A stretch of DNA of 64,000 bases from Deinococcales bacterium (GCA_043775825.1 JAYVRX010000088.1:10598-74597), one strand, 5' to 3'. Counted from the stretch's first letter, positions 9,032 to 32,302 are shown. Notes: generated from the letters alone by a model not told the origin. Made by a program: numbers and translations.

Positions 9032-9105
9032 GCGGCTATGATGTAACGGTAGCATGTGACCCTTCCAAGGTCTTCGTTTCGGTTCGAATCCGAATAGCCG
9101 CTCCA
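9032..9105 (+). tRNA. tRNA-Gly (anticodon TCC), CCA encoded
   Basis: Manual cloverleaf: GCGGCTA TG ATGT AACGGTA GCAT G TGACC CTTCCAA GGTCT TCGT TTCGG TTCGAAT CCGAA TAGCCGC TCCA. The U73 discriminator is typical of tRNA-Gly. Confidence 0.88.
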
Positions 9106-12688: not shown

Positions 12689-14716
12689 CTAGAATCCGAA
12701 TTTAAGACCGGCGCGAACACCAAAACGGAATTTATCAGATGTTTGATTGAGGTAAAAACGTGGATCGCCTTCGATAAACAATCCAAAGTTGTTGCTGAAG
12801 GCAATGTTGATACCAACAATACCGTTGATGAATAAGCTGTTTGCTAAACCAAATTCGCCGCCAACACCTGCACCCAGGTACAAGAATCCGAGGTCAAGCA
12901 CAAGTGCAGGGTTGACACTGAAGTATTTGGCTTGCAGGCTTGGGTTGGTCGAGTTTGGGGCGGTAGCGAATGCCAGGTAATCGCCCGAAACGCGGAAGCC
13001 AATTGGTCCAAGGAAGCGTTTGAAGCCAACCATAACGCTGATGGCGATGTTGTCATTGGCTGCGCCTGAAGGGATTACACCGTAACGTCCACCAATGCCG
13101 ACGTAAAAGTTGGGTGGGGTGCTGACTGGCGCGGGGGTAACAACTGTTGTGGTCGGTGTCGTGACCACTGGGGTGGTATCAACTGGTGTGGTGGGTGTGG
13201 TGGTGGTTGGTGTGGTAGTTTGCCCTGCCAGCTTGTCTGAAAGTTCGGTCACGCTCGCGGCGAGTTCATCGACTTGTCCCTCGAGGGCGGCGATGCGTTC
13301 TTCTTGGGCTTTGAGCTTATCGTCCTGAGATTTCAGTTGATCGGTAATCGCTGGGTCAGTTGCGCCCGGTTTAATACCATCGACCTTGGCTTGCAGTTCA
13401 GCAAGTTTGGCATCTTGGGCTTTGATTTGATCAGCCAGCGCTGGGTCTGCGCCGCCTGGTTTAATGCCCTCAACTTTGGCTTGCAATTCGGCAAGTTTGG
13501 CATCTTGGGCTTTGATCTGATCAGCCAGTGCAGGGTCAGCCGTGCCTGGTGTCATGGCATCAACTTTGGCTTGCAATTCGGCAAGTTTGGTTTCTTGGGC
13601 TTTAAGTTGGTCACTCAAAGCGGGGTCTGTTCCTGGTTTGATCGCATCGACCCGAGCACCAAGGTCTTTGAGTTGAGTCTCGAGCGCCCCAAGGCGAGTG
13701 CCCTGATCGGCGGCGGCGGCACTGGCTGGGTTGGCGCTGGCAATACCTTTGACCTCATCTTGCAAGGCTTTCAAATCGGTTTGCAATTGCGTGAGCTGGT
13801 CGGAATTTTCGGTTGCGGGTTGCGCCTCGAGTTTTGCGATTCGGTCCTCAAGCGCTTTGACTTGAGGACTGAGGTCGGCAACGGCAACAGGTCCAGCCAC
13901 GGCTTTGGCTTGATCCTCGAGGGCAGTTACGCGATTCGCCAGTTCGGTACTGTCAAGTCCAGAAACTTGGTCTTGCAGCTCACTCAGGCTGGTCTCGAGT
14001 TCGGCAAGTTTTTCGGCTTGATCGGTGGTTGGCGCAGTGCCAGCTTGGGTTTTTAAGGCGGCGATGTCAGCTTCGATTGCGGCAATGCGTGCCGATTGTT
14101 GGGCGTCTGGCGCAGCCGCCGTCAGGTCGGTGCGCAAAGCAGTCAATTGAGTCTCGAGGTCGGTGACTTTGGTTTGAAGCGCAGGATCAACCGTTCCCGC
14201 CGCCTGTTGCGATTCAAGTTTTGTGTTTAAAGTTGCTAGCAAATCCTCGAGCGATTTGACGCGCGGTTCTAAGTCCGTGCTGCCAGATGAAGAACCCATT
14301 GCTTTGAGTTGTTCCTCGAGCGTACCAAGCCGTCCATCTTGGTTGGTATTGGTCGTCTCGAGTGCCCCAAGTTGGGTTTTGAGTCCTGCAAGTTCGGCTT
14401 TGACATCATCAATGCCTTTGTTGATGATTGCTTGTCCGTTCGCATCAACGTTGTTCATTGCGCCAGATTGCAACAACCTGTAGAAAATCAGTGCGGCTTG
14501 ATAACGCGATAAGGTCTGCTGCCCTTTAAATGTGCCGTCGGGAAAACCTGTGATCAAACCTTTTGCCGTGACGTAATCCACGGCTTCTTGCGCCCAATGT
14601 CCGGCAGGTACGTCCTGAAAACGGGATTGAGCAATTTTGGCGATGGTGAACCCCATCACCGGGACTCCAAGTCCCAGAGCGGTAACGATGAGCGCTTTGA
14701 CAACGTGTTTTTGCAT
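12689..14716 (-). CDS. SLH-domain outer-membrane/peptidoglycan tether protein (SlpA-like: SLH + long coiled coil + C-terminal beta-barrel)
   Basis: The start at 14716 has a GGAGG SD 5 nt upstream and is followed by a signal peptide MQKHVVKALIVTALGLGVPV. The SLH motif is FQDVPAGHWAQEAVDYVTAKGLITGFPDGTF. A heptad-rich Ala/Gln/Leu central region follows, then an aromatic-rich tail ending ...GLKFGF. Confidence 0.8.
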   Translation of the reverse strand: MQKHVVKALIVTALGLGVPVMGFTIAKIAQSRFQDVPAGHWAQEAVDYVTAKGLITGFPDGTFKGQQTLSRYQAALIFYRLLQSGAMNNVDANGQAIINKGIDDVKAELAGLKTQLGALETTNTNQDGRLGTLEEQLKAMGSSSGSTDLEPRVKSLEDLLATLNTKLESQQAAGTVDPALQTKVTDLETQLTALRTDLTAAAPDAQQSARIAAIEADIAALKTQAGTAPTTDQAEKLAELETSLSELQDQVSGLDSTELANRVTALEDQAKAVAGPVAVADLSPQVKALEDRIAKLEAQPATENSDQLTQLQTDLKALQDEVKGIASANPASAAAADQGTRLGALETQLKDLGARVDAIKPGTDPALSDQLKAQETKLAELQAKVDAMTPGTADPALADQIKAQDAKLAELQAKVEGIKPGGADPALADQIKAQDAKLAELQAKVDGIKPGATDPAITDQLKSQDDKLKAQEERIAALEGQVDELAASVTELSDKLAGQTTTPTTTTPTTPVDTTPVVTTPTTTVVTPAPVSTPPNFYVGIGGRYGVIPSGAANDNIAISVMVGFKRFLGPIGFRVSGDYLAFATAPNSTNPSLQAKYFSVNPALVLDLGFLYLGAGVGGEFGLANSLFINGIVGINIAFSNNFGLFIEGDPRFYLNQTSDKFRFGVRAGLKFGF
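13300..13645 (-). repeat. Tandem 90-bp (30-aa) coding repeats inside the SlpA-like gene, about 4 units
   Basis: Units read (A/T)DPAL(A/S)DQ(I/L)KAQ(D/E)(A/T)KLAELQAKV(D/E)(G/A)(I/M)(K/T)PG(G/A/T). The DNA is near-identical between the two middle units. Confidence 0.85.
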
Positions 14717-15006
14717 AAGAACCTCCGGATTTACCTGCTCCTGGAGGCTACGTTCGCAGCTTTCGATCAACGTGAAAAAATCCTGACGTGGCTCATAAAA
14801 GCCACTCATACAAATGGACTCATGAGAACACTAAGCATTATACTTCACATTTTAATAGTTCTATCTCGAGCTAGACGCGAGTCTTAGAATGTGAAAACCT
14901 GATCTTTAATCATGTTTGTATCATTTTTAAAAAACTTAAATTCAAACAATATTTTTTAAAATCTGATTTACTCAGGGCGTCAACTCGAGCATCAAAAGGA
15001 GTCAAC

Positions 15007-15954: not shown

Positions 15955-16458
15955 TTACAAGCGGTTTGGCAGGTAAAACAACAAATCAAGCGAGGGCGGT
16001 TTGATGCCTTGGGTGCGTAGAAGTACAACAATCTGGGCGGTATGCCGCATCTCGTGAATCATGACGTGCCACAGCAGACCGTCCAACTTAAACCGCTCTG
16101 TTGGCGAATCGTCTATCAACCGTTCTAAGTCGTTTTCTGTCAATATCGCAAGGTAAGTCAGGGTACTTTGCTCCACAGCCCGCCAATAATCGAGCAGCAT
16201 TCCAAGTTCTAAACTCGAGGTGTCTTCAGTGTCTTTTAGGGCAGGAAACGAATTTCGGACAGGCTCATCAGCCAAAATGGTGTAGTGAAGCCAGCCATCC
16301 TCAACGGCGGCAGTGTGAAGTACCAGGTCTTTGATGCAGCGAAACTGTTCACCCTTCATGAGCGGGCGCGACAAAACCTCATCTGGCAGACTTTCGAGTG
16401 TGCTCCACAAATCGCGCCGTGCACGAACAAGGTAATCGTAAGTTTCAGGAATATTCAT
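15955..16458 (-). CDS. DinB family protein
   Basis: 167 aa four-helix DinB pattern with His triad candidates (HTAAVEDGW ... HVMIHEMRHTAQ). Confidence 0.75.
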   Translation of the reverse strand: MNIPETYDYLVRARRDLWSTLESLPDEVLSRPLMKGEQFRCIKDLVLHTAAVEDGWLHYTILADEPVRNSFPALKDTEDTSSLELGMLLDYWRAVEQSTLTYLAILTENDLERLIDDSPTERFKLDGLLWHVMIHEMRHTAQIVVLLRTQGIKPPSLDLLFYLPNRL

Positions 16459-16691
16459 TGATCGCTCCTTGAGAGTTTAGTTCCAAATTTTAAGGTTAAA
16501 TTGTATTTTGATTTCAAATCAAAGCATAACTGATACACATTCTGTCAAAAACCAAACATGCTGGCAAGTTCATCCCCAACAACTGCTCGATGATCCGGCT
16601 CGAGAGAATAACGATTCGTCAAACACCCTTGAAGTTTCTGATCGCGTTAAACTGCTTTATGCTTGTCGATGTCACCACAACATCACTCGAG

Positions 16692-17198
16692 ATGCGCAAC
16701 CAGACCGAGTTCAAACCCTCGAGCCGTATTGTTGAAAACCTCGAGATTGAACGCGCCGAAATACCGTTGCCCGAACTGAATCGTTTTTTGTACACGGCTG
16801 TTGGCGGCGATTACTTTTGGATTGATCGGTTGTCTTGGACGTATGCCCAGTGGGAAACCTGGCTCGAGCGTCCAGACCTCGAGACTTGGCTGGCGTATTT
16901 GAACGGCACGGTGGCAGGTTATTTTGAACTCGAGCGGCGAGCTGAGGGCGTTGAGATTTCAATTTTTGGTTTGATTCCCAAATTTGTTGGGCTGGGTATC
17001 GGTGGCGTGTTGCTTTCACGCTGCATTGCCAGGGCTTGGGAACTTAATCCAACTCGGGTTTGGGTGCACACTTGCAGCTTGGACGGTGCTCAGGCTCTGG
17101 CAAATTACCAAGCTCGGGGTTTTAAAGTCTTTAATCAAGAAACCAAATCTGAAAACCTGCCCGATCAACCTCCTGGCGCTTGGCTTAGCGCTCGTTAA
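16692..17198 (+). CDS. GNAT family N-acetyltransferase
   Basis: Motif A-like GLIPKFVGLGIGGVLLSRCIARAW and a C-terminal YQARGFKVF. The ORF is open from 16590. The ATG at 16692 was chosen by typical family length and is uncertain. Confidence 0.6.
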   Translation: MRNQTEFKPSSRIVENLEIERAEIPLPELNRFLYTAVGGDYFWIDRLSWTYAQWETWLERPDLETWLAYLNGTVAGYFELERRAEGVEISIFGLIPKFVGLGIGGVLLSRCIARAWELNPTRVWVHTCSLDGAQALANYQARGFKVFNQETKSENLPDQPPGAWLSAR

Positions 17199-17401
17199 GG
17201 CAAGTATCGGTTTAATCTCGAGCAGCAAATCTAAGCTCGAGTTTAAGTTTTTAAGCTCGAGCAATACATGCAGTTGCAACGGGCGTAAAACTTTTTATTC
17301 TGAAAGTAGTACCTCTAGCCCTCAAAGTTTCGTATCTGATTCATGGCTTTGGGGTCAATCCTTGCGTGCCTCTCATGGTTGCTGGTTAGGCTTAAAGTCT
17401 C

Positions 17402-18463
17402 ATGCTGGCACGCCGATTTCCATTCTACCTTCTGCGCGAATTTGTCCCACTGTACTTGGTCGGGTTGGTCACGATTTTAATGCTTTTAATGATTGACTTT
17501 TTCGCGTTTCTGGCGGCATCGTTCATCAATTATCACACTCCTATCGATGTCATGTTTCGGGCGCTGATTGACCGAATGCCGTTCTTTTTATCCTACATGA
17601 TTGCGCCAAGCTTGGCGTTTGCGGTGCTGGTCGGTTTGGGGCGGCTGGCAAAAGATTCAGAATTGAAAGCAGTTTACTCGAGCGGCATCCGTCCGATCAC
17701 ACTGCTTGCCCCAATTTTGCTGGTCGGCGCGTTGGCAACGGGCTTGAGTTGGGTCAACGAGAACATCTGGCGTCCAGTAGCCGATCAACGCTTCAAAACC
17801 TCGTATTACGCGATTTGGCATTCAGAGCCGCCAAGGGTTCAGGCGCTTAAATCTTATGCTTCTGAAGACGAAAACACCTTGTACCATGCGGGTTCAATTT
17901 TGCCCGACAAAGACAACAAGCAACTCGCCGAACTTTCGGGCGTGATGATTACCACCCCCAAAGGAATTTACACCGCCACCCGAGGGCGTTGGGATGCAAA
18001 CGCCAAAACCTGGGAGTTGTACAACGTTTATCACACCACCGACGCCGAAACCCAGGCGGTCAGCGACCCCGAGGTGCGCCGCGTCTTCCCATTTACCCTG
18101 CCCGTCGAACCTGACCTTGTGCCACCCGAAGCCCTGCCATTGCCGGACTTGATCGCTCGAGCCTCGAGCAAAGTTTTATCGCAGTCCGAGCGCTACGATG
18201 CACAATTTAAGCTTCACAGGCGTTTTTCTGACCCACTGGCAGCAATGCTGATGGCAATTGTTGGCGGTGCGCTGGGTTTGACCATTTCAAACCGCGCTTG
18301 GGGTTTCGCTGGCACAATTGGTTTGATCGCCGTGTACTGGGGCTTGTGGCAAATCGGTTTTAACCTCGCCTCGGCTCAGGCACTTGCCGCGCCGTTGGCG
18401 GCTTGGTTACCGAGCGCCATCTTTGGCATTGGTGCACTCTTTGGGTTGCGGAGGCTTTTATGA
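17402..18463 (+). CDS. LptF/LptG (YjgP/YjgQ) family permease
   Basis: 353 aa. It has 3 N-terminal TM segments, a periplasmic beta-jellyroll-sized insert, then 3 C-terminal TM segments. The motif RLAKDSELKAVYSSGI is typical of the family. Confidence 0.8.
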   Translation: MLARRFPFYLLREFVPLYLVGLVTILMLLMIDFFAFLAASFINYHTPIDVMFRALIDRMPFFLSYMIAPSLAFAVLVGLGRLAKDSELKAVYSSGIRPITLLAPILLVGALATGLSWVNENIWRPVADQRFKTSYYAIWHSEPPRVQALKSYASEDENTLYHAGSILPDKDNKQLAELSGVMITTPKGIYTATRGRWDANAKTWELYNVYHTTDAETQAVSDPEVRRVFPFTLPVEPDLVPPEALPLPDLIARASSKVLSQSERYDAQFKLHRRFSDPLAAMLMAIVGGALGLTISNRAWGFAGTIGLIAVYWGLWQIGFNLASAQALAAPLAAWLPSAIFGIGALFGLRRLL

Positions 18464-19611
18464 GCAGCCACGTTAGTACCCCCACCGTACCACCAGTCAA
18501 ACTCGAGCGCATCCGCCCCAGAATAACCTTGCTCGACATGTACATTGTCGGCGAGGTGCTGCCGATGCTGGCGGGCGGTTTGCTGATCGTGATTGTAACG
18601 CTGGTGATGGGCGCTTTGTTTGAACGCATTGGGGCGTTTCTCGCCAAAGGCGCAAATCCGTTGTTGGTCGCGCAATACCTGGCGTTCAGGTTGCCCGAAA
18701 TGCTCTCGTTGGGCTTGCCTATCGCACTGCTTTTTGCGGTACTCATGAGCCTCTCGAGATTGACCCAAGATTCGGAACTGAAAGCCGCCGTGGTCGCAGG
18801 CATCTCCCCCACACGCTTGACCATGCCAGTTTTGATTATTGGCGCGGTGGTCGCGCTTCTGGCATTCATTAACGCCGAAACCCTACAACCCAGAGGCATC
18901 GAAAACGCCAGCCGCGTCCTGCGTGACATCATCATTTCAAACCCTAGGGTCGCATTTACTGGCGGACAATTTTTTAAAGACGCCCAAAATCAAGTGATTT
19001 ACATTCCAGACGGCGGCTTAAAAGCGGGTGGCATCCTCGAGAACATCACGATCATGCAAGGCTCTGAAGGACAAGTGCCCTCAAGCATCATGAAAGCCCA
19101 GCAAGGCAAAATTTTAGCCGACCAAGGCGCAATAGAACTGACCAATGGCTCGAGAATCACCTACCGCGCCGGCGATGCACGACCCGTCACGATTGCGCAT
19201 TTTGCCAGGGCTGTGATTCCGATTAAAGACTTGCAGCAAGGCGCAAATTTGTCCCAAAAACCGATTGATCTGCCCTTACCGACCCTGCTCGAGCGCATCA
19301 AAAGTTATCAAAGTCAGGGTTTTAGAATTAACGGCGAATTGACGGCGTTGAATCAAAAATTTGCCAAACCGCTCGCGTCTGTGGCGTTTGCCTTGTTCGG
19401 CATTGCCTTGTCGCTTTATACGTTACGCAGCAATCAAAGCCTGGGTTTTGTTGGCGTCATGTTTTTAACGTTTTTCTATTACGCCACCTGGACTGTTTTT
19501 AACGTCATGGGCGAAAGCGGCGCGATTCCCGCCGTACTTGCCGCCTGGACGCCCGACCTGCTTTACGCTGGAGCGGGTGTCGCCCTTCTCGCAATGGCAC
19601 GGCGACGTTAA
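18460..19611 (+). CDS. LptF/LptG (YjgP/YjgQ) family permease, second paralog
   Basis: The ATG at 18460 overlaps the upstream stop (ATGA) and GGAGG lies upstream. Architecture matches the first paralog, with motif RLTQDSELKAAVVAGIS. Confidence 0.8.
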   Translation: MSSHVSTPTVPPVKLERIRPRITLLDMYIVGEVLPMLAGGLLIVIVTLVMGALFERIGAFLAKGANPLLVAQYLAFRLPEMLSLGLPIALLFAVLMSLSRLTQDSELKAAVVAGISPTRLTMPVLIIGAVVALLAFINAETLQPRGIENASRVLRDIIISNPRVAFTGGQFFKDAQNQVIYIPDGGLKAGGILENITIMQGSEGQVPSSIMKAQQGKILADQGAIELTNGSRITYRAGDARPVTIAHFARAVIPIKDLQQGANLSQKPIDLPLPTLLERIKSYQSQGFRINGELTALNQKFAKPLASVAFALFGIALSLYTLRSNQSLGFVGVMFLTFFYYATWTVFNVMGESGAIPAVLAAWTPDLLYAGAGVALLAMARRR

Positions 19612-19614
19612 CGC

Positions 19615-22600
19615 ATGAAGCTGAACGACCAACACCATCACAACATGAAGCTCAAAAATCCCCAACAGCGTGAGAACAATGGTATCAACGATGTTCTGCA
19701 TGAATCGATTGTAAAAATTCGTAAGGGCAGGGCGCAGCAAGCAGCGACCCTACGAATCATGATCGTATTTATCCTGGCAATCATCTGTTTTTCAAGCCCC
19801 GCCTTCGCCAAGAAAATCGAAATCTTGCAAGCCGAGAGACTCGAGCTTCGCAACGTCACGACCCCCGACGGTAAAGTCGAAGAGTACGTGATTATCACGG
19901 GCAGACCCGCGATTGTACGAATTGATAAAGACGAACTCGAGGCGAACCGAATCGAATTCAACAAAACGCGCCGCAAGCTTTACATTATTGGGCAGGGCGT
20001 GTTGCGCGGCGAGAAGGAAACCATCGCGGGCAACGATTTTGTCGTGGACACCTCCGACAATTCGCTCGAGGGTGTAGACGTTTTGATCGCCACCACCGAT
20101 ATTGACGTGGTGGGCATCAGCGTCGAGCGTCTGCCAGGGCAACTCGAGGTCAAAAGCGGGTATTTCTCGCCGTGCTCGAGGTGCGGCAAGGTTGGCGACG
20201 CTTACGGCTTTAAGGCGGGCAGTTTGACGTTGTTTCCTGGGGATCGTCTGATCGCTCGAGATGTCACAATTTTGGTGGCGGGCGAACCGATTTTATACTT
20301 GCCGATCATGGTGGTCTTGCTGTCCGAACCGAGCCGTCAACCGCGTTGGGTTTTTAGAATTGGCGATTTTAGTGTTGGCGGTGGTGGGAACGCCAGCACC
20401 GACACGACCTTGCCCAATGTCGAGCTTGATTTACCGTTCACCACAGGCGATTTTGGACTTGGCTTTACGCTGCTGCGTTATTACGGCAACCGCAACCCAG
20501 CCTTTGGGGTTGGCGTGGATTGGACGTTGTTTGACTTGTTTGGTGGCATCAATAAATCTCGAGTTTTCTTTTTGGTACTACCGCCACCTGTTGGGACTAC
20601 TTTGGGCGCACCCTTGGCATACAGGCTCGAGTCTGCTGGTACGTTTGATATCACCCCAGGCGCAGACCCAGAGGATGCCCTGCCAAGTGTTAGGTACAGT
20701 TTCAGCCTCTCAAGGGTCGATGAAGGCATTAACCGCAGTGAAGATTTACGGGGCTTGACCGGACCGCAGCGTCGCACAGATTTTGGTGCGAAATTCAACT
20801 TGGACAATACTTCTTACGCCATCGAACTGGAAATCTCGAGTTACTTTCTCAACCGCGATATCAACCCTGTCACCATTAATCCGCTCAAACCCAGCTTTCT
20901 AAATTCAATTTACAGCTCCAGCAACACGTTGTTTTTCCCCGAATTGCGGTTTACCGCCAAAGATTCGTTGTTACCCAAACTTGGTGGTTTGAGTGTCCAA
21001 AATTTTTCCGTGACGCTTGGCATGATTACCGCGCCTTACAACCGCATCAACCGCAGTGCCCGTTTTGCCGCAGACCCTCTGACGGGTTTGGTGACCGCCG
21101 GCAAGCTTAATGTGAAATACGGTGTTGGATTAACCCTTAACCCTTGGGAGGGCGGGGTTTTAACCTCGAGTTTTAGGTTTGAAGGTCGCTACTACACGAC
21201 CCAAAACCCGAACGGCACTTCAGATATTGAAAAATTAAAACCAACGGGCGAATTTGAACGCAGCGTTGATTACCAGTTTAGTACCAGGTTTTCGCAAAGC
21301 ATTTTTAAGGACGTAGCTCGAGTTGATTTTAACGCCGATTACAGCGAAACCACTGGCGAGAGTCCGTTTGGTTTTGATAGCGTTGCCGTTCGTGAGGCAA
21401 CACTGCGATCCGGTTTGGGGTTGACCATCACACCCGCCACTTGGCTTTCATTCAGTGCTTCACAAAGCCTGAGTGTCACCGCCACCAGAGAACCCAAGTT
21501 TGACGCTGCACAGTTCAGCCTGAACCTCACGCCAAGTTTTGGCAACTTGAGCCTTAGTGCCTCGCACAACCTCGAGACAGGTATTTTGCAATCTTGGAAT
21601 ATCGCGGGCGGCATCAACACGCCGTTTGGCATTACGTTTCGCTTTTCGACTGGACAGTACGTCAACCCCACAACTGGGGGCTTATTTTACCTTTATTCAC
21701 CGTTGCAACTCAGCCTTAATTATTCTGGCGACAGTGGCAAACTGACCTCATCGCTTAGTATCAGTCATGACCTCAATCCTGACGGAGTTGTGCAAAACAT
21801 TGGTTTTACCTTCGGTTATCGTTTTGGTGACACTGAAAACCCGTACAGCTTCACTTTCATTCAAAATCTCACGCCGCCCCAGACCGTGACCGGCAATGAC
21901 GGTAAAAATGCTTTCTCGGTTTTGCGCGGTTCGACCCGTTTTACCTGGCGTGGTTTAAGCATTAGTGTTGACAACAGTTTCGATTTTAGACCTTGGAAAT
22001 ACTCGGTTTTATCCTCACCAACCACCAGCACCTCAAGTTCTGGAAGAATCCCGCCTTCGACCACAGCCCTCAGCGTTTCAGGCGATGCGCCATTCACTTG
22101 GAATCTCAATTTTACCAGCAACCTTGACTTAGCAACGTTCACTTTTTACGAACCCAGATTGAACGGCAGCCTGAGCACCCAAAATCCAGGCTCGAGTTTT
22201 GATCTGACGCTGGGTTTTCAACTCAGGCTGCCCGATGTCGCGCAGAACGATTTTCGATTCTCGAGTCTAAGCTTGCAATTTGGTTGGGATGTCGTTCCAG
22301 GATTCAGCGTTTCTGGTTCGATAACCTATTCAAGAAACCTTGCAGGAGGCATTTTCTTTGATACCTTCAACTTGAATCCTTTGGCGTTCACGGCAGCCTT
22401 TGCCTCCGAAGGCTCGAGCAAACCCGATGTGTTTTTCAGCGTGGTTTTGAAAGGCACTTATGTCTTTGATGATGATCCAAAGTCGAACGGGATTCCAAAT
22501 TTCACTGGGACTGGCAGCCCGTACCGCACCACTTGGCGACCCGTGTTTATTCTGACTTTTGACCTGTGCTGCTATACCTTGCGTTTTACTTTTGACAGCA

Positions 22601-22728
22601 CTCCAGAAAAAGGCTCGAGTTTTACTTTTAGTTTTATTCTGCCTTTTGGTGGCGAGCAAAAAGCGATTGTCAGTGACCCCGACGGTCTGCGCTTTCCAGT
22701 GCTGCCATTTATTCCACCAATCAAATAA
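19615..22728 (+). CDS. Very large outer-membrane protein with N-terminal OstA/LptD-N-like domain (LptD-like)
   Basis: 1037 aa. After the hydrophobic segment MIVFILAIICFSSPAFA there is an OstA-like beta-jellyroll region (IEILQAERLELRN...IEFNKTRRKLYIIGQGVL...GYFSPCSRC). About 800 aa of beta-strand-like alternating sequence follow. The start is ambiguous (19615, 19645 or 19759). Confidence 0.6.
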   Translation: MKLNDQHHHNMKLKNPQQRENNGINDVLHESIVKIRKGRAQQAATLRIMIVFILAIICFSSPAFAKKIEILQAERLELRNVTTPDGKVEEYVIITGRPAIVRIDKDELEANRIEFNKTRRKLYIIGQGVLRGEKETIAGNDFVVDTSDNSLEGVDVLIATTDIDVVGISVERLPGQLEVKSGYFSPCSRCGKVGDAYGFKAGSLTLFPGDRLIARDVTILVAGEPILYLPIMVVLLSEPSRQPRWVFRIGDFSVGGGGNASTDTTLPNVELDLPFTTGDFGLGFTLLRYYGNRNPAFGVGVDWTLFDLFGGINKSRVFFLVLPPPVGTTLGAPLAYRLESAGTFDITPGADPEDALPSVRYSFSLSRVDEGINRSEDLRGLTGPQRRTDFGAKFNLDNTSYAIELEISSYFLNRDINPVTINPLKPSFLNSIYSSSNTLFFPELRFTAKDSLLPKLGGLSVQNFSVTLGMITAPYNRINRSARFAADPLTGLVTAGKLNVKYGVGLTLNPWEGGVLTSSFRFEGRYYTTQNPNGTSDIEKLKPTGEFERSVDYQFSTRFSQSIFKDVARVDFNADYSETTGESPFGFDSVAVREATLRSGLGLTITPATWLSFSASQSLSVTATREPKFDAAQFSLNLTPSFGNLSLSASHNLETGILQSWNIAGGINTPFGITFRFSTGQYVNPTTGGLFYLYSPLQLSLNYSGDSGKLTSSLSISHDLNPDGVVQNIGFTFGYRFGDTENPYSFTFIQNLTPPQTVTGNDGKNAFSVLRGSTRFTWRGLSISVDNSFDFRPWKYSVLSSPTTSTSSSGRIPPSTTALSVSGDAPFTWNLNFTSNLDLATFTFYEPRLNGSLSTQNPGSSFDLTLGFQLRLPDVAQNDFRFSSLSLQFGWDVVPGFSVSGSITYSRNLAGGIFFDTFNLNPLAFTAAFASEGSSKPDVFFSVVLKGTYVFDDDPKSNGIPNFTGTGSPYRTTWRPVFILTFDLCCYTLRFTFDSTPEKGSSFTFSFILPFGGEQKAIVSDPDGLRFPVLPFIPPIK

Positions 22729-22731
22729 GAG

Positions 22732-23994
22732 GTGTTCATGAAAAAATTTCTGTTGTTGTCAATCCTGATTTTAACCTCGAGTTGCACGGGTTCTTTCGAG
22801 GACAGTGGAACACCCGTGCGTGTGGTGGTCAGTGTCAATCCAGATTTAAGCAAGAATATTTCCTGTATCGGTCAACAATTGGAAGTCCCCAAAAGCCCTG
22901 GCTTGGTTTTGCTTGACCCAAATCGTTTTTCAAGCTCAGTCAACCAAGTTAATTCTTGCGGTGCATTTTTTCCCCTGCAAGGAATCGGCTTTGATGTCGT
23001 TAACGGGGCAGAAACAATTGGTTCGCCCAGTGTTTTTGTTAGTGTTCCCAGTCAGTCGGTGGTAAAACAACTGACTTATTTCCGTTCTGCAAACAACACC
23101 GTGCAAGTCCCAAATACCCTGGCGCAAAAACTCGAGTTTAAGTACACACCAATAGACAACAAAGATGATCCCGATTTTTGTCCAACACAATTGTCAGTCA
23201 GTCGAGACAATAGATTCCTGGCTGTTCTGGACAATCCAAATGATGTCAATGAATTTTGTGGTAAAAACATAACACGGTTACCGCGCGTTGTTATTTTTAA
23301 TATTGCAGATGGCAGCATTTTTAAAAGAATTGAAGTTTCTAAAAATAACTTCATCGACGGAACGAGTAAGGAAATCTCAATCTCGCTTTTAAACAATCGG
23401 TTGTATGTGCTTGGTGAATTCGGTAGTAAATTTAGAATCTCGAGTTTTAATTTATTGGTAACCGATCCAAATCTTGATTTCATCAAATCCGATGAGTCAA
23501 GATTGCCGCCAACATTCTCGAGTTTTCCGACCAATAACCCAAAAGTTGATCTCAGCATCGTTCAAAATGGCTTGCTGGCAAGTTTATCCAATGACAATGG
23601 CGGACAGGTTTTCCCAATTGTTGAAGATTTGACCCAAAGAACCATTGCCTTTGGTGATGAGCGATTGGCTGGCAGCTTGGCAACAGATTTACCCATAGGA
23701 AAAACCAACACGATTCGTTCCAATGCTTTCAGTTCTTCAATCGTATCAAATTTTACCTTGTATTTGCGTCCAAGCAATATTTTGTTCCAAAGAAACACGC
23801 AATTTGCCGCACAAACAATAGCTTCACCAATTGATGCGACCTTTCCAGCCGACAATACGATCTGGGTTTTAAACACCAAACGTCTTTTTAAAGTTGATAC
23901 CCGAGATTTCCCTGAAAAACCTCAGTTTGATACGGGTATCGACTTTAGCGATTTAAATCCTAGCAATTTGGTCTGGGTTTTAGACGAGAATTAA
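22732..23994 (+). CDS. Hypothetical lipoprotein
   Basis: Signal + lipobox-like MKKFLLLSILILTSSC. 420 aa, low GC, starting 4 nt after the LptD-like stop. Confidence 0.5.
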   Translation: MFMKKFLLLSILILTSSCTGSFEDSGTPVRVVVSVNPDLSKNISCIGQQLEVPKSPGLVLLDPNRFSSSVNQVNSCGAFFPLQGIGFDVVNGAETIGSPSVFVSVPSQSVVKQLTYFRSANNTVQVPNTLAQKLEFKYTPIDNKDDPDFCPTQLSVSRDNRFLAVLDNPNDVNEFCGKNITRLPRVVIFNIADGSIFKRIEVSKNNFIDGTSKEISISLLNNRLYVLGEFGSKFRISSFNLLVTDPNLDFIKSDESRLPPTFSSFPTNNPKVDLSIVQNGLLASLSNDNGGQVFPIVEDLTQRTIAFGDERLAGSLATDLPIGKTNTIRSNAFSSSIVSNFTLYLRPSNILFQRNTQFAAQTIASPIDATFPADNTIWVLNTKRLFKVDTRDFPEKPQFDTGIDFSDLNPSNLVWVLDEN

Positions 23995-23997
23995 CAT

Positions 23998-24630
23998 TCA
24001 AAACGAGTACGAATAACTCGAGATATACCCTGGGGTTGCAAGAACTTCAATTTGTACACCCTCAACACTGGTAACTCGAGCCACCTTGATCGGGTTGCCC
24101 AGTTCAATCTGGATTAAATTCCAACCAGCCTCGAGCGTTATATCAAAACCACGGTCTGCTTTGACACGGGTTTTGGCGTCGCTGTAAACAATCACAATGC
24201 TGCCGCGTCCTTTGGTGATAAAACTCTCGAACAGTGTATCGCCGCTCGAGAAATTTTTTTCGGCATTTGTATCCAAATAAGCACGAACCACGGTGCGGGC
24301 AGTGTGGGCGCTGCCGGTAATATTGATTTTGCCGATCAAGCCGGGCCAGTCGAGCAGGTCTTGAACCAGATTTTGCAAGGCACTGGCTGGCGGGGCAGTG
24401 TCACTAACGTTAAGGCTATACGCGCCATTGGTCACGGCAGAACTCGAGATTTCTTTACTTGGATTGCCACTGCGATCTGCTAAAAACACACCGATTCGTA
24501 AATTGGCTGGCAAGGCATTTTGTGATTTCACAGTACCCGAAACATTTAAAGGCGCAGCCAAGGACAGGCTCGAGATCAATACGCTCGAGAGGACGATCAG
24601 GGTCTTTAGACTTAAATTCAGGGCGTTCAT
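23998..24630 (-). CDS. Hypothetical secreted protein
   Basis: 210 aa with signal peptide MNALNLSLKTLIVLSSVLISSLSLAAP. No family recognised. Confidence 0.45.
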   Translation of the reverse strand: MNALNLSLKTLIVLSSVLISSLSLAAPLNVSGTVKSQNALPANLRIGVFLADRSGNPSKEISSSAVTNGAYSLNVSDTAPPASALQNLVQDLLDWPGLIGKINITGSAHTARTVVRAYLDTNAEKNFSSGDTLFESFITKGRGSIVIVYSDAKTRVKADRGFDITLEAGWNLIQIELGNPIKVARVTSVEGVQIEVLATPGYISSYSYSF

Positions 24631-24852
24631 TGTGGTTCATCCGAACGATCCCTTTGGTTTGACTCGAGGGTCGGATGCCTCCAAGCAAAGACTAGCACCA
24701 ATTTCAAGAATTGCCTGTGTGATTCAAGGTTGGCTAAATACTGCATGAGAAAAACCAGGTTCGGTTCAAGCTGGCGAGAACGATAGCTTATCCTTTTTCA
24801 ATTGGTGCGGGCGTCATAACGATTTCTCGCACTCGAGATGTAACATAAACGT

Positions 24853-25455
24853 ATGGCTTACAGCAATTTTACCCTTCAAGAAGTCCTCAAAAAGTTCAGC
24901 CTCAAGTTGGAGGAAGGTTGTGTATTGTTTCCAAATGTCGAACCTCGAGCAGCATCGGCACTTTTAACGGCTTGGCTCGAGCAAAAAATTCCGTTGGCAT
25001 TGGCACTTTCGACTGAAAAAGCCCGTAGCGAATTTATTATCGCGCCAATTCTTGCCGAAGTGCGCGAGCAGTTGGGAAAACGATTTTCGTTGTTTTCTGG
25101 AATTGATTTTACGGTTGATACAAGCCAAGGTTTAAACGGCGAGTGTGACTTTTTATTCTCAAAGTCCCCAGAGCAACTGGTTTTGCTTGCGCCAGTGATT
25201 AGTGTTGTAGAGGCGAAAAACGAAAGTTTTAGAAACGGCTTGGCTCAAGCTTGCGCCGAAATGATTGCCGCTCGAGTTTTTAATGAACGTGAGGGACATC
25301 CACTCGCAAGGGTTTTCGGGGCGGTCACAACGGGCGATGATTGGCAGTTTTTGATGCTCGAGGGAAACGTTCTATTTGTGGACAAAAAGCGCTTTGATTT
25401 GGATCAGCTTCCCGAAATTCTTGGGATTTTTTGTTATATGCTCGAGACGGCTTAA
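24853..25455 (+). CDS. Hypothetical protein with PD-(D/E)xK nuclease-like motif
   Basis: 200 aa. ECDFLF ... VISVVEAKNE fits the D...(D/E)xK restriction-endonuclease-like core. Recognition is by motif only. Confidence 0.4.
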   Translation: MAYSNFTLQEVLKKFSLKLEEGCVLFPNVEPRAASALLTAWLEQKIPLALALSTEKARSEFIIAPILAEVREQLGKRFSLFSGIDFTVDTSQGLNGECDFLFSKSPEQLVLLAPVISVVEAKNESFRNGLAQACAEMIAARVFNEREGHPLARVFGAVTTGDDWQFLMLEGNVLFVDKKRFDLDQLPEILGIFCYMLETA

Positions 25456-25463: not shown

Positions 25464-26114
25464 TCATGAACCCTTAAAGGGTTCAATCACAATATGGTCG
25501 CCCTCGAGCTTGGCAAGTTCGGCGGTGTCACCCTCGCGGGCTTGCATTCCCTTGATGCTCGAGCTATCGCTGGCTCGGGCGATGGCTTGCCCAATCCGAA
25601 TTTGCGGGCTGGCAATCTTTTGCGCCCAAATGATCGCATCTTTGCGCCCCGTCGCGCCCGCGTGCGCCAAACCGCGCAGTGTTCCGACCACGATAATGTC
25701 GCCGCCCGCCACCAATTCCACGCCAGAGTTGACATCACCCAGCACAATCACGCTGCCAGGGGTTTCTTTGCGCGTTCCAGAACGAAGCGTTCGGGCAATG
25801 ATTTCGGTGCGACCACTGGAGGGTACTTCCTGCACTTGCGCGACCACCGTTTCGATTGTAGCTGGCGTATTTTGATTGGAAGCTCGAGGAGGTCTGAAGC
25901 TCGAGATCACCCCTCCAGCGCTCAGGATTGCCTGCATGACTGTTTGAACCACATCACCGGCAATGACACCGCCAAGCTCGAGTTCGACCCGTTCGGACAA
26001 GAGTTGAGCACGAGACTCTAACGCACTCGAGACGCTTTCTTTGGTATCAACAGGCTCGAGCAGAATGCTCAAACCCCCACTTGTGCCGCGCAGTTTCATA
26101 ATTGGTTTTACCAT
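25464..26114 (-). CDS. minC: Septum site-determining protein MinC
   Basis: C-terminal beta-helix repeats VIVLGDVNSGVELVAGGDIIVVGTLRGLAHAGATG. The start is ambiguous (26147, 26114 or 26099). Confidence 0.75.
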   Translation of the reverse strand: MVKPIMKLRGTSGGLSILLEPVDTKESVSSALESRAQLLSERVELELGGVIAGDVVQTVMQAILSAGGVISSFRPPRASNQNTPATIETVVAQVQEVPSSGRTEIIARTLRSGTRKETPGSVIVLGDVNSGVELVAGGDIIVVGTLRGLAHAGATGRKDAIIWAQKIASPQIRIGQAIARASDSSSIKGMQAREGDTAELAKLEGDHIVIEPFKGS

Positions 26115-26184
26115 GCAAGGCGCGGATTTGGTGTACCAGATTGACATGAAGCTCTAAAGTTTGGATGCAGTACAACCCAAAGCT

Positions 26185-27981
26185 TTAGCGGATAACACGA
26201 CCTTGCTTGTCGAGTTTAATGTTCCAGTACGCCGCCATGACTTTTTTCACGGCTGGCAGTGCCACGCCCGAACCTTCAACGCCGTTCTCAAAAAAGGCAA
26301 CCACAACCAAATTGGGGTTATCAAAAGGACCATAACCCATATACCAGGCATGGTCACGGTTATGACCTTGTGGTGATTGTGCCGTTCCAGTTTTTCCAGC
26401 CGTGACAATCGGGAAAACATTCGCGCCCAAGACTTCTTTAGCGGTGCCGATACGGGTGGTCATCAACATGCCCTCTTTGAGCATTGACCAGTATTTGCCC
26501 GAAATTTGGGTCATGGGTTTTGGTGGTACGGGTTTGTTGTCAATGGCTTTGATGACTGTTAATTCGGGGCGTTTACCATTGTTGACGATGGTTGCCAGCA
26601 TTCGTGCGATTTGCAAAGGATTTGCCCGAAGGCGTTGACCAATCGAGTAATTAAGCGGCACACCATTGTCCCAGGTTTTCTTAGCCCGCTCCAAAGCAAC
26701 TGTTGGCACTTCATCAAACTTTTCACCGAGAAGCTCGATACCGCTCGATTGCCCAAAACCAAAGTCTTTGGCACGCCTGGCAATGTCGTTGACAAACCGT
26801 TCTGGTCCGTAACTGACCGCCGATTGGTAATACCAGGTATTGCACGAATTTGCGATTGCCGCTCGAGCGTCCATAACACCCATATTCCTAAACCGATTCC
26901 AGTTTTTCCAGAAACGACCACCGTAAAACCAACTGCTGTAACACTGAAATACCCGATTGCCAAACCCATTCTCGAGCAACGTGCTGGCGGTCACCAATTT
27001 AAAGGTCGAACCTGGCTCCCAGACGTTGACCATGCGGTTGAACATGGGTTTGTACTTGGTGTCCAATTGGGCTTTGATGCCTTCTTTGGCGGTGGGTTTG
27101 ACCGAAAACCAATTCGGATCGTATTTGGGTCCAACCGCGAACGCCAACACCTGACCCGTTTTTGGATTTAAAGCCACTATCGCCCCCCTGGCGGATTCGA
27201 CAAGTGGTATACCGTGTTGTTTATTCAATCGGTTTATTTTCTCTTTGGCTTCAGTGATGGCTTGTTCGGCGGCACGTTGCAATTTGGGAATAATGCTGAG
27301 GGTTACGGTCTTGCCCCTGATCGCCTCTTTGACCGTTCGTTCGGAAACCACCCGACGCGCGGCATCAACCTCAACATTTTTTAAACCGTCCTTTCCTCGC
27401 AAAATATCGTTCAACCCAAACTCGAGACCGGCTTTGGGCAGAATATCGGTCAGTGCCGCTCCAGCTTCGACATCTTTGGCGCTGGCTTGGGACATGTAAC
27501 CCAACAAATTTCCTGCCATGCCACTAAGGTAGATCCGTTCAACCCTAGAGCGAACTTCGATCACGCTCTCTTGACCCGCAAGCCATTCCTGAAGCGGTAA
27601 AATGCTGTCCTGCGGCACGTCTTTGGTCAAAATGGCAGGCTCAAATTTGTTGGTCACCGTTGGAAGTGGCAATTTTATTTTTGCCAACCGTGCAATACGG
27701 TCTAAGAATTTAACCTCGCCGCCGTGGTAGATAAGTTCAATCGCTTTGCGGTTGGTTGCCATGACCGAACCGTCCGCCGCATGAATATCGCCCCGAACGG
27801 CACGAATAACGGTCAAATCGGTGGTGTTATTCTCGCTCGAGGTGACAAATTCGTAATGCCGCACCACTTGTAAGTAATATAAACGCCCCAAGAACACCAG
27901 CAAAACCAAGCTCATAAACAAAGTCACCCGAAGGATTGGATTGCTCGAGATTTTAATCTTTTCGTTATCGCGTTGATTCAT
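26185..27981 (-). CDS. mrdA: Penicillin-binding protein 2 (elongasome transpeptidase)
   Basis: 598 aa with an N-terminal TM segment, SxxK motif GSTFKLV, SxN-like region and KTGTA motif. Sits directly downstream of mreCD. Confidence 0.85.
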   Translation of the reverse strand: MNQRDNEKIKISSNPILRVTLFMSLVLLVFLGRLYYLQVVRHYEFVTSSENNTTDLTVIRAVRGDIHAADGSVMATNRKAIELIYHGGEVKFLDRIARLAKIKLPLPTVTNKFEPAILTKDVPQDSILPLQEWLAGQESVIEVRSRVERIYLSGMAGNLLGYMSQASAKDVEAGAALTDILPKAGLEFGLNDILRGKDGLKNVEVDAARRVVSERTVKEAIRGKTVTLSIIPKLQRAAEQAITEAKEKINRLNKQHGIPLVESARGAIVALNPKTGQVLAFAVGPKYDPNWFSVKPTAKEGIKAQLDTKYKPMFNRMVNVWEPGSTFKLVTASTLLENGFGNRVFQCYSSWFYGGRFWKNWNRFRNMGVMDARAAIANSCNTWYYQSAVSYGPERFVNDIARRAKDFGFGQSSGIELLGEKFDEVPTVALERAKKTWDNGVPLNYSIGQRLRANPLQIARMLATIVNNGKRPELTVIKAIDNKPVPPKPMTQISGKYWSMLKEGMLMTTRIGTAKEVLGANVFPIVTAGKTGTAQSPQGHNRDHAWYMGYGPFDNPNLVVVAFFENGVEGSGVALPAVKKVMAAYWNIKLDKQGRVIR

Positions 27982-28090
27982 GCTAAAACCTACATTCTGG
28001 CTCGAGATTTCGTAAGCTTAAGGTAACCTTACTTAAGTTTTGCTGAGAAAACTGTCGTCAATTCTGGTTTTTTGAAGCTTCAGCTTGAAT

Positions 28091-28639
28091 TTACAACAAT
28101 TGTTCTTCGTTGTTCAAAGTCCGCCCAAAAGCCCAATTTGCCAACCAGTATACAAAAGGAGCAAAAACCAGTGTGGTGATGATTTCTGGAATCATGATCC
28201 TTAAGATCGAATCGCCAGTGATAAACCCTTTGCGAGTCCAATAATTAAAGACAATAAAAATAAACCATTTTGAAAGCATCGCTGACAGAACAACCATTGC
28301 CTGGTTAAAACTGGTTTCGGTACTTAGAAAACGCCTAACCGTAAAACCGACAACCACCGCTGCCGCCAGTCCAGCCGCATGAAAACCAAAGGCTCCCGCG
28401 CCAATCGCATCTTGCAACAAACCAATGGCGTAGCCCAAACCTAAACCCCACATTGGACGAACTCGAGAAGCCAAAGTCAAAGTGGCGAGCAGAAATAAAT
28501 CTGGTGGTGTAATCGTTGGGACAAGCGCGTAGAACGCGCCTTGTAAGCCCCAAACAAGAAAAACGAAAAGGAATGGTTTCAAGTGTAACCTTTCAAAATT
28601 CTGACACAACATCAAGGGCATGGCGCCGCTCAAAATCAT
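28091..28639 (-). CDS. mreD: Rod shape-determining protein MreD
   Basis: 182 aa polytopic membrane protein located between mreC and mrdA. Confidence 0.65.
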   Translation of the reverse strand: MILSGAMPLMLCQNFERLHLKPFLFVFLVWGLQGAFYALVPTITPPDLFLLATLTLASRVRPMWGLGLGYAIGLLQDAIGAGAFGFHAAGLAAAVVVGFTVRRFLSTETSFNQAMVVLSAMLSKWFIFIVFNYWTRKGFITGDSILRIMIPEIITTLVFAPFVYWLANWAFGRTLNNEEQLL

Positions 28640-28658
28640 ATTTTACGCCCAAAATCGG

Positions 28659-29438
28659 CTATGGCAAACTGAGAATAAAGACTTCTTCTAAAGCGCTCGG
28701 GTCGACAAAGGGTTTCACCTCGAGCGTTAACCCGAGCGTGTCACCTCTTGAGGCAATGCGTTTGACCACCAGACCAATTTGAACTGTTGGAAACGCTCCG
28801 CCCGCAAAACCGCCCGACAAGACTTTCTGTCCAACTTTGACGTTGGAGCCTTTAAAATCTTCAACCCTCAAAATTCGACCCGCAATACCGCGTCCAAGCC
28901 CACGACCTTGTTTTTTGGTACTTGCAACGGTTGCACCAACCCGAAATTCTGGATCGGTCACGGTTTTAATAAGTGCCGTGCGTGCCGCAACCTCTTGCAC
29001 AATACCGACCAAACCCGACGGAGTCGTGACCGCCATTCCAAGTTGTACCCCATCTTGTTCGCCGAGCGCCACCATAAGCTGCGAAACCAAACCATCGTTC
29101 TTATAAGAAATTACACTGGCAATCGCAAACACCCCAGGCGATTGATAACGCCGAATTTTCGCGGCAGCCTCGAGCTTATTGACTTCCTGCTCGAGTTGCA
29201 CAAGTTTGGTTTGGCTTGTGCCAAGTTGATTTTTCAGGGTTTTGTTCTCGATACGCAAATCGTTTTCAAAGGCGACAGTGTCCACCGCATTTTTGGCGTT
29301 TTGGGCAAGTTGATAAAACATGCCCGTGAACGGCGCAATGCTGGCTGCCAGCGCAAATGGCGCTGGCGGCACAAAACGCGTCGAAACCAACGAAACCAGC
29401 ATCAAAATACCGAACACAAGCCAGAGTCTCGAGTTCAT
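28659..29438 (-). CDS. mreC: Rod shape-determining protein MreC
   Basis: N-terminal TM segment MNSRLWLVFGILMLV, a coiled coil (NQLGTSQTKLVQLEQEVNKLEAA), then beta-barrel domains. The ORF is open to 29483. Confidence 0.8.
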   Translation of the reverse strand: MNSRLWLVFGILMLVSLVSTRFVPPAPFALAASIAPFTGMFYQLAQNAKNAVDTVAFENDLRIENKTLKNQLGTSQTKLVQLEQEVNKLEAAAKIRRYQSPGVFAIASVISYKNDGLVSQLMVALGEQDGVQLGMAVTTPSGLVGIVQEVAARTALIKTVTDPEFRVGATVASTKKQGRGLGRGIAGRILRVEDFKGSNVKVGQKVLSGGFAGGAFPTVQIGLVVKRIASRGDTLGLTLEVKPFVDPSALEEVFILSLP

Positions 29439-29472
29439 AATCCACCAAATTGTGTACTCAGCCCCAAGCGCA

Positions 29473-30072
29473 TCAATCTGCACCCACGACTTCCGAATTT
29501 ACCCAGGGCAGCAACTCGAGGTTGAGGCTGTGCGTCAACTCGAGCATCCTTGAAATTGGTAAACCCACCACGTTAAAAAAGTCACCCTCGATTTTTTCGA
29601 CCAGCGCCATGCCCATCTCTTGAATACCGTAACCGCCGGCTTTGTCCAAGCCTTCGCCAGAGTTTGCGTAACCCAGAATTTCCTGGCTCGAGAGGTCACG
29701 GAATTTTACGCGGGTGCGTTCAAAACCGAGGGCTTGGGCGGTTGGCGTCAGGATGCAAACGCCCGTGAAGACCTCGTGCCAATTGCCAGACAAAGAGCGA
29801 ACGAAATCGGCATTCTCGAGCTTGCTGACGGGTTTTTGCAAGATTTGACCTTCAAACGCCACCACCGTATCGGCTGCCAAAATGACCCGATCAGGCTCGA
29901 GCAATTGAACGGCTCGAGCTTTTTTATTCGCCAAGAATCGCACCAAAGTTTGCGGGTCAGGTTCAGGGCTGTTTTCGTCCACGTCCGCGCTGCGAACGCG
30001 AAACCGGACACCCAAACGGGTTAAAAGTTCTTTGCGGCGCGGACTGCCCGACGCCAGAATGATTTCTGTCAT
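29473..30072 (-). CDS. maf: Maf-like nucleoside triphosphate pyrophosphatase
   Basis: MTEIILASGSPRRKELL ... GAYGIQ-like GGYGIQE. The ATG at 30072 was chosen over the upstream ORF extension. Confidence 0.8.
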   Translation of the reverse strand: MTEIILASGSPRRKELLTRLGVRFRVRSADVDENSPEPDPQTLVRFLANKKARAVQLLEPDRVILAADTVVAFEGQILQKPVSKLENADFVRSLSGNWHEVFTGVCILTPTAQALGFERTRVKFRDLSSQEILGYANSGEGLDKAGGYGIQEMGMALVEKIEGDFFNVVGLPISRMLELTHSLNLELLPWVNSEVVGAD

Positions 30073-30224
30073 TGCTACCTTCAAATGGGCGTGCCCAGGA
30101 GTTTTCATGTGGTTGCCCAACATCGGGTTTAGTTTAACGCTTTCAGATGAAGCTTGTCTCACCTTGATAGGATCACTTCAGCTTCTGCGCACTTTAAGAA
30201 CAAAAATTCTGACAATTCAGCACC

Positions 30225-32295: not shown

Positions 32296-32302
32296 GCACA
32301 CT

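Follow-up and report, generated by a model that had tools for sequence, protein, structure and literature searches.

A four-gene operon from a Deinococcales bacterium joins LptF/LptG-type permeases to an LptD-like outer-membrane protein and a candidate propeller-lipoprotein partner

We identified a four-gene cluster at positions 17402-23994 of a 64,000-nucleotide stretch of DNA (the window) from an uncultured Deinococcales bacterium. It encodes two LptF/LptG-family inner-membrane permeases, an LptD-like outer-membrane protein (OMP) of 1037 amino acids with a giant predicted beta-barrel, and a lipoprotein of 418 amino acids that is modeled as a seven-bladed beta-propeller and is the positional partner of the LptD-like gene. 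By its fold, domain order and cysteine signature the OMP is very probably a homologue of LptD, and the lipoprotein is probably its physical partner. On balance, we favor the view that the operon specifies the inner- and outer-membrane parts of a lipid exporter of the Lpt type, with the propeller lipoprotein in place of LptE. The evidence for each of these components is described below.

The OMP was modeled with AlphaFold2 from 64 homologues (mean predicted local distance difference test score, pLDDT, 84.2). The model consists of a disordered stretch (residues 1-47), a signal helix (45-59), a periplasmic beta-jellyroll or beta-taco with strands from 68 to 235, and about 38 long strands between residues 268 and 1021. 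On the DNA, the jellyroll (residues ~66-235) corresponds to 19810..20319 and the beta-barrel region (residues ~244-1026) to 20344..22692, both on the plus strand. When this model was compared with the Protein Data Bank (PDB) by Foldseek, ranks 1 to 34 were all LptD, with E values from 1.7e-17 to 2.2e-5. Full-length LptD entries occupied the range 1.7e-17 to 6e-13 and barrel-only 'core' entries 8e-8 to 2e-5, and the next barrel families, TonB-dependent receptors and ushers, appeared only from about 1e-4 or weaker. The superpositions on LptD structures have TM-scores of 0.20-0.38, root-mean-square deviations of 14-19 Å and 8-12% sequence identity.

The mature OMP contains exactly four cysteines, C187, C190, C985 and C986, and all four are invariant in 64 of 64 homologues. 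The first two lie in a P-C-S-R-C motif within the jellyroll (20170..20184), and the second two are adjacent (22567..22572) in a turn three to four strands before the C-terminus. A prior reading made from the DNA alone (the sequence-only reading) had placed a GYFSPCSRC motif (residues 182-190) at the end of the jellyroll; the motif is present, but the strands of the model run on to about residue 235. The roughly 800 amino acids of beta-rich sequence that it saw after this motif are there. In E. coli LptD, Cys31 and Cys173 of the beta-taco are disulfide-bonded to Cys724-Cys725 in the periplasmic turn between beta24 and beta25 (bioRxiv 10.1101/2025.04.10.648201). By analogy, the jellyroll of the OMP is probably tied to its barrel by disulfides between C187/C190 and C985/C986. 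P230 is also invariant, and P243 is present in 60 of 64 sequences, both at the junction of jellyroll and barrel. Their placement recalls P231 and P246 of E. coli LptD, which lie on beta1 and beta2 and weaken the lateral seam (PMC6164715), and the two pairs are putative structural equivalents.

The barrel region is considerably larger than that of E. coli LptD, at ~790 versus ~580 amino acids, with ~38 predicted strands versus 26, a count that comes from DSSP applied to the model and may include strands lying outside the barrel wall. From a simple geometric estimate we infer, rather than measure, a lumen of roughly 55-60 Å.

The relationship to LptD is far less apparent in sequence comparisons. 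The sequence-only reading had called the OMP 'OstA-like' and proposed a search with hidden Markov models (HMMs) to check this. The likeness is evident in the predicted structure but invisible to Pfam, where the OMP finds no match at E ≤ 1, and it is recovered from three directions: weak matches in relatives, a transitive profile link, and the Foldseek result. The sole NCBIfam signal of the OMP is with TIGR03002 (LptA), at residues 72-149 with an E value of 0.021. PF03968 (LptD_N) weakly matches five of 20 members of the OMP family, with a best E value of 0.015. A profile of the OMP family was run in a full HMMER scan against 1.84 billion representative proteins and returned 716 matches at E ≤ 0.001. 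Its second tier consists of proteins of 640-790 amino acids that are aligned from the jellyroll into the barrel with E values of 1e-27 to 1e-16, and four of ten sampled from this tier exceed the Pfam gathering threshold for LptD_N. We collected 65 OMP homologues, and all that carry names belong to Deinococcota (Deinococcus, Trueperaceae, Thermaceae, Calidithermus and Oceanithermus). Those of Meiothermus and Deinococcus are labeled 'LPS-assembly protein LptD' by NCBI and UniRef.

The N-terminus of the OMP is unusual. The 48 codons noted previously between the first ATG and the hydrophobic segment (19615..19758) are real as an open reading frame (ORF), and the model predicts this extension to be disordered, with a pLDDT of 28. 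The hydrophobic core of the signal peptide and its AFA/KK cleavage site follow at residues 49-65 (19759..19809), with the sequence MIVFILAIICFSSPAFA and then KKIEIL; A65 at the cleavage site is nearly invariant in the alignment. Relatives at least 69% identical (P0003, P0006 and P0011) also carry an N-terminal extension, with many insertions and deletions, and two of them (P0003 and P0006) have an MKL or MRL start right after lptG along with partial motifs (xENN, and RGRAQQ or RGAA). Among distant homologues, some have the signal peptide at their very start and some carry arginine-rich extensions of unrelated sequence. The only in-frame ATG, GTG or TTG codons before the mature OMP are those of M1, M11 and M49. 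Initiation at M49 is unlikely, as it would provide no positively charged n-region and the relatives keep an MKL start directly after lptG. To judge from the sequence, the extension is more likely a long n-region of the signal peptide. At the other end, the OMP family has a conserved proline-rich tail, G-L-R-F-P-x-L-P-F-I-P-P-I-K, in which P1028 is nearly invariant and which differs from the terminal aromatic beta-signal usual in proteobacterial OMPs.

The four ORFs are co-directional on the plus strand, as had been read from the sequence, and are closely packed. The first permease gene (17402..18463, 353 amino acids) and the second (18460..19611, 383 amino acids) share an ATGA, the ATG of the second (18460) overlapping the TGA of the first. 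The OMP gene (19615..22728) begins with an ATG three nucleotides past the stop codon of the second permease gene. Only the last start differs from that reading, which had given the lipoprotein 420 amino acids and a beginning four nucleotides after the OMP gene. The frame is open from GTG 22732, but the likelier start is ATG 22738, which yields 418 amino acids (22738..23994) and a spacer of nine nucleotides after the OMP stop. GTG 22732 is part of the Shine-Dalgarno-like sequence AAGAGGTG (22727..22734, read from the sequence), three nucleotides upstream of ATG 22738, and was rejected as the start for this reason. A database copy of the lipoprotein (P0066) likewise has 418 amino acids and begins at the ATG matching 22738. 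Promoter- and terminator-like sites were no commoner in a scan of 16400-24900 than in shuffled sequence. The closest loci are in metagenome-assembled genomes (MAGs) labeled Deinococcales bacterium (L001, L002 and L010), where the OMP is 86-87% identical.

Both permeases are members of the YjgP/YjgQ family, in agreement with the sequence-only reading. PF03739 matches them with E values of 2e-56 and 2e-75 (192 and 254.5 bits, with a cut-off of 27.9), covering model positions 2-353 and 2-351 of 353. The NCBIfam equivalogs for LptF and LptG, TIGR04407 and TIGR04408, score both proteins about equally, at 92-165 bits, which falls short of the cut-offs (230 and 240) and does not separate F from G; we therefore call the two an LptF/LptG pair without assigning each. 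Of 70 related loci, 44 have an lptF-lptG pair immediately before the OMP gene; these belong to Trueperaceae, Thermaceae and uncultured Deinococcales, and the order lptF-lptG-OMP is also found in the cultured species Meiothermus taiwanensis. No lptB, lptC or lptA is adjacent to the cluster, which bears out what had been noted, and none of these genes, nor any lpx gene, is among the approximately 50 larger ORFs of the window. The two sets of ATP-binding cassette (ABC) ATPase genes in the window belong to an Opp/Dpp-type and a FecCD-type system.

The fourth gene encodes a lipoprotein with the lipobox LTSSC, which we take to fit the PROSITE lipobox pattern, and with Cys16, counted from ATG 22738, as the lipid anchor. 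It has no recognizable family, as proposed previously, with no Pfam or NCBIfam match at E ≤ 1; the copies in databases are all 'hypothetical protein' without Pfam domains. The AlphaFold2 model (pLDDT 83.7, predicted TM-score 0.85) is all-beta with about 30 strands. Foldseek returned 266 PDB matches at E ≤ 0.001, and the best of them are generic seven-bladed propellers: NirF (6TV2), 3U4Y, YbhE (1RI6), DDB1 and Nup159. The suggestion that the protein would not be homologous to LptE holds both by HMM and by fold. There is no match to LptE (PF04390) at E ≤ 1, and neither LptE nor BamB is among the best 50 of the 266 fold matches. PQQ-type repeats are not detected by Pfam. A profile of the lipoprotein family compared with PDB sequences gave only matches to BamD at the level of the signal peptide (E values of 0.18-0.31). 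The lipid-anchor cysteine, G18 and C148 are invariant in the family, and T17, C174 and D387 are nearly so; C148 and C174 may plausibly form a disulfide.

The lipoprotein is coupled to the OMP across the phylum. Among the 70 related loci, the stretch that follows the OMP gene is readable in 61, and in 49 of these a member of the lipoprotein family lies directly downstream, consistent with the synteny that the sequence-only reading would require. The two genes overlap by four nucleotides in 27 of the 49 paired loci, and elsewhere the second gene begins only a few nucleotides from the OMP stop. The pairing spans Trueperaceae, Thermaceae and Deinococcus. The downstream ORFs encode lipoproteins of 306-409 amino acids when mature, with an N-terminus C-[TS]-G-[ST], usually followed by x-E; in the cultured species M. 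taiwanensis and D. petrolearius the corresponding sequences are ACTGSREEP and ACTGIVET. Seventeen other lipoprotein candidates encoded in these loci do not have the C-T-G motif. Judged by their sequences, these proteins are one fast-evolving family that is marked by the C-T-G-[ST] mature N-terminus. A word-seeded database search with the lipoprotein of the window retrieved only 19 relatives, mostly at least 69% identical, a distribution that by itself looked clade-specific. The possibility that the lipoprotein is a clade-specific addition was rejected, since a profile built without the window's clade recognizes the window protein and positional orthologues are found in all families sampled.

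The permease genes are not a constant part of this arrangement. In all 17 Deinococcus-type loci a gene for a SpoIID-domain protein, not lptFG, precedes the OMP gene, and in D. petrolearius it overlaps the OMP gene by four nucleotides. The OMP-lipoprotein pair is kept in most of these loci without lptFG, and therefore the lipoprotein is tied to the OMP and not to the permeases. Loci preceded by SpoIID comprise L072 (at 6679-8004), L013, L015-L022, L024, L025, L027, L028, L040, L043, L067 and L070. SpoIID domains are associated with peptidoglycan remodeling, and this coupling in Deinococcus may link the translocon to opening of the cell wall.

The sizes of the two proteins vary together. Thermaceae have a mature OMP of ~860 amino acids with a mature lipoprotein of 308, Deinococcus 885-960 with 317-364, Trueperaceae 965-975 with 370-409, and the window 991 with 403. 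The lengths of the mature proteins covary with r=0.85 (n=42), a correlation that is driven by about four or five clades and lacks phylogenetic independence.

In the mechanism that we propose, LptF and LptG would be the transmembrane part of an ABC extractor, with the LptB ATPase and any bridge proteins encoded elsewhere. LptB2FG would extract an amphiphile from the inner membrane, and jellyroll domains would pass it to the OMP. There, the jellyroll of the OMP would take the lipid tails while the enlarged barrel passes the head group, and the molecule would be inserted sideways, through a lateral seam, into the outer leaflet. As the cognate partner of the OMP, the propeller lipoprotein may act in barrel assembly, in disulfide maturation, and in filling or gating the oversized lumen. 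It would thus do the job of LptE, which plugs the LptD barrel and is needed for maturation of the LptD disulfides (PMC6164715; PMC10353723), using a fold that is unrelated to that of LptE and larger, in keeping with the larger barrel. Because Deinococcota are described as diderms without lipopolysaccharide (LPS) (bioRxiv 10.1101/2022.12.21.521298; PMC10160955; PMC10353723), the cargo would be the phylum's own glycolipids, most likely a Deinococcota glycolipid or phosphoglycolipid, with lipoproteins as the alternative. Lpt orthologues with a glycolipid cargo have been proposed for Thermus, which lacks LPS (PMC10353723).

Not every part of this proposal is equally firm. That the lipoprotein sits in the OMP lumen as a plug falls somewhat short of being probable. 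The most specific version, a ~38-strand LptD-type translocon whose lumen is gated by a propeller lipoprotein that co-evolves with it in size and which exports the phylum's glycolipids, phosphoglycolipids or surface lipoproteins, is more tentative still.

A number of results weigh against the exporter with a replaced LptE. In the OMP itself, Pfam detects neither the LptD_N/OstA domain (PF03968) at E ≤ 1 nor the LptD barrel domain (PF04453), the latter being absent also from 20 relatives and ten second-tier proteins, and a 20-sequence profile of the OMP family has no match to PDB sequences at E ≤ 10. The low TM-scores clearly indicate that the modeled barrel differs in geometry from that of LptD, and its strand count depends on the model, as mentioned above. 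Contact between OMP and lipoprotein is no more than probable, and the propeller could equally sit under the barrel, as BamB does on BamA. Twelve of the 61 readable loci have no member of the lipoprotein family within 6 kb of the OMP gene: seven from Deinococcus, three from uncultured Deinococcales MAGs (L008, L009 and L012), and L048 and L050. In these the gene after the OMP gene is unrelated or on the other strand. The size correlation has the clade structure already noted. Moreover, the lipoprotein gene has a GC content of 0.407, and of 0.396 at third codon positions (GC3), compared to 0.50-0.535 and 0.55-0.61 in the rest of the operon; fast evolution, amino-acid composition and gene replacement are possible reasons. 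Finally, the LPS-less status is a description of the phylum and not of this particular lineage.

In one alternative, the OMP is an LptD homologue but the lipoprotein is not a plug. Instead, it would be a periplasmic accessory that docks beneath the barrel or at the jellyroll, in the manner of BamB with BamA or of LptM and LptY with LptDE, where it would aid assembly or span the thick cell wall, or else it would be a surface-lipoprotein substrate that is flipped by the OMP. We regard this as unlikely, although it accounts for several of the observations. A generic seven-bladed propeller is a common scaffold for protein-protein interactions, and BamB sets the precedent of a propeller lipoprotein that serves as an accessory of an Omp85 barrel; however, BamB is outside the best 50 fold matches and Pfam finds no PQQ-type repeats. 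The LptD of Borrelia is reported to flip surface lipoproteins without LptE (bioRxiv 10.1101/2022.12.21.521298), but it would be unusual for one dedicated cargo protein to be kept throughout a phylum. The 12 loci without an adjacent gene suggest that the lipoprotein is dispensable or movable, and the conserved C-T-G-[ST]-x-E might serve in sorting or docking. Set against this, the coupling of OMP and lipoprotein is tight, often translational, and persists even where lptFG is not adjacent, the sizes of the two proteins covary, and the barrel is larger than that of E. coli with no other plug candidate encoded nearby.

A second alternative, an ordinary LPS exporter in a lineage that makes lipid A, with the lipoprotein as a very divergent LptE, is very unlikely. 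The database name of the homologues points to LPS assembly, and LptE is the least conserved Lpt protein and hard to recognize outside Gammaproteobacteria (PMC10353723). However, the lipoprotein is an all-beta propeller twice as large as LptE, rather than an alpha/beta protein, and no LptE occurs among its best 50 of 266 fold matches. The same gene pair is found in cultured Meiothermus and Deinococcus, members of a phylum that has an outer membrane without LPS (PMC10160955), and no lpx gene is among the larger ORFs of the 64 kb. Least credible of all is the explanation that the OMP is an unrelated giant porin or secretion barrel whose likeness to LptD and position beside lptFG are coincidental or convergent: the missing Pfam and PDB profile matches, the 8-12% identity and the low TM-scores would fit it, but the top fold matches are LptD exclusively and have both domains in the same order, the layout of the four invariant cysteines is that of LptD, the transitive profile leads to proteins that pass the LptD_N threshold, and an operon with lptFG is kept in three families.

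The genes flanking the cluster are unrelated to lpt. Upstream are genes for a GNAT acetyltransferase and a DinB-family protein. Downstream are two unknown ORFs followed by minC, pbp2, mreC and maf. The first of the two ORFs (23998-24630, minus strand, 210 amino acids) converges on the lipoprotein gene with a gap of three nucleotides; neither it nor the second (24853-25455, plus strand, 200 amino acids) has a Pfam match. The shape and division cluster minC-pbp2-(182-amino-acid ORF)-mreC-maf lies at 25464-30162, just downstream of and on the opposite strand to the lpt cluster, and the region is therefore an envelope-biogenesis neighborhood.

Other features of the window lie farther away. Positions 1-8400 have a GC content of 0.61, compared to 0.50 in the remainder, and encode an Opp/Dpp-type ABC importer with a fused permease-ATPase ORF (1666-3570), a GH4 glycosidase, a NagB-like isomerase, a BadF-type kinase and a MOSC protein. 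The segment ends at three tRNA genes (Lys, Pro and Gly; 8717-9105) and resembles an island for uptake and catabolism, of foreign composition, located beside tRNAs. A protein of 706 amino acids (12689-14809, minus strand) with an N-terminal SLH domain and then a long coiled coil is similar to the N-terminal portion of the SlpA-type proteins that connect the outer membrane with the cell wall, although it is much shorter. On the plus strand, two tandem DUF4129 proteins (456 and 467 amino acids) and then a MoxR-type AAA ATPase are encoded at 30925-34637, and three paralogues of the Uma2 family (putative restriction endonuclease-like) occur within 4 kb (34660-35205, 37523-38023 and 38049-38633). 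The minus-strand ORFs at 38672-39607 (311 amino acids) and 54178-56163 (661 amino acids) have no Pfam match.

How the outer membrane is supplied and organized in diderms without LPS, such as Deinococcus-Thermus, Thermotogae and some spirochaetes, is an open question that bears on the debate about a single origin of outer membranes. A review by Putker et al. 2015, as relayed in later papers (bioRxiv 10.1101/2022.12.21.521298; PMC10353723), reported orthologues of LptD for D. radiodurans and T. thermophilus. The presence of LptD in Deinococcota is thus a confirmation with stronger evidence and not a discovery, and we consider this part of the question settled for the phylum by an LptD that is conserved in structure and cysteines phylum-wide and that lies in an operon with lptFG. 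In the searchable literature we found no description of the four-gene operon, of the enlarged barrel, or of a phylum-wide propeller partner with its C-T-G-[ST] N-terminus and covarying size, and a propeller partner of LptD appears to be previously undescribed. The conserved and unannotated lipoprotein is a concrete candidate for the missing LptE function. Since the same pair is present in cultured and genetically tractable Thermus, Meiothermus and Deinococcus, the hypothesis is directly testable. If the most specific version of the proposal is true, this would be the first lipid translocon to be defined in the outer membrane of an 'atypical' diderm, and a direct argument for a shared origin of outer membranes.

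Among the closest known systems is LptDE of Proteobacteria (E. coli, Shigella, Klebsiella and Neisseria; PDB 4Q35, 5IV9, 8H1R and 7OMM). Both have an OMP with a jellyroll followed by a large barrel, a dedicated lipoprotein partner (a probable one in the window), and LptF and LptG upstream in the pathway. Two jellyroll cysteines and an adjacent cysteine pair near the C-terminus are also common to both, and the conserved prolines at the junction may be equivalent. In contrast, the jellyroll cysteines are three residues apart here (CxxC) and about 140 apart in proteobacterial LptD, and the partner is a beta-propeller of ~400 amino acids rather than an alpha/beta protein of ~190. The long N-terminal pre-sequence of the OMP and its lack of a Pfam LptD match are further differences. 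In E. coli, lptD, lptE and lptFG are three separate loci, whereas here the four genes form one operon. BamB is comparable to the propeller in another respect, as an outer-membrane lipoprotein of ~390 amino acids with a beta-propeller fold that partners the large barrel BamA. However, BamB has eight blades with PQQ-like repeats and binds POTRA domains, and the lipoprotein of the window has about seven blades and a gene coupled to lptD.

Spirochaete LptD (Borrelia burgdorferi BB0838 and its counterpart in Treponema pallidum) resembles the OMP in belonging to LPS-less diderms, in having an expanded barrel in AlphaFold models and in being found without an LptE homologue. It is larger than proteobacterial LptD, and lipoproteins or glycolipids have been proposed as its cargo (bioRxiv 10.1101/2022.12.21.521298; PMC10353723). 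Borrelia LptD has no cysteines and carries a C-terminal extension of 362 amino acids that may be self-plugging, in contrast to the four invariant cysteines of the OMP. In addition, BB0838 lies in a uvr operon without an adjacent partner lipoprotein, whereas the lipoprotein here is encoded by a separate and tightly coupled gene. A further parallel is the 'pABC permease' G4FGC1 of Thermotoga maritima, a fused LptF/G-LptA-LptD-like protein from an LPS-less, deep-branching diderm related to Deinococcota, for which transport of membrane lipids to the outer layer has been proposed (PMC10160955). In Thermotoga these domains are fused in one polypeptide, whereas in the window they are distributed over separate genes that include a full-size barrel and a lipoprotein.

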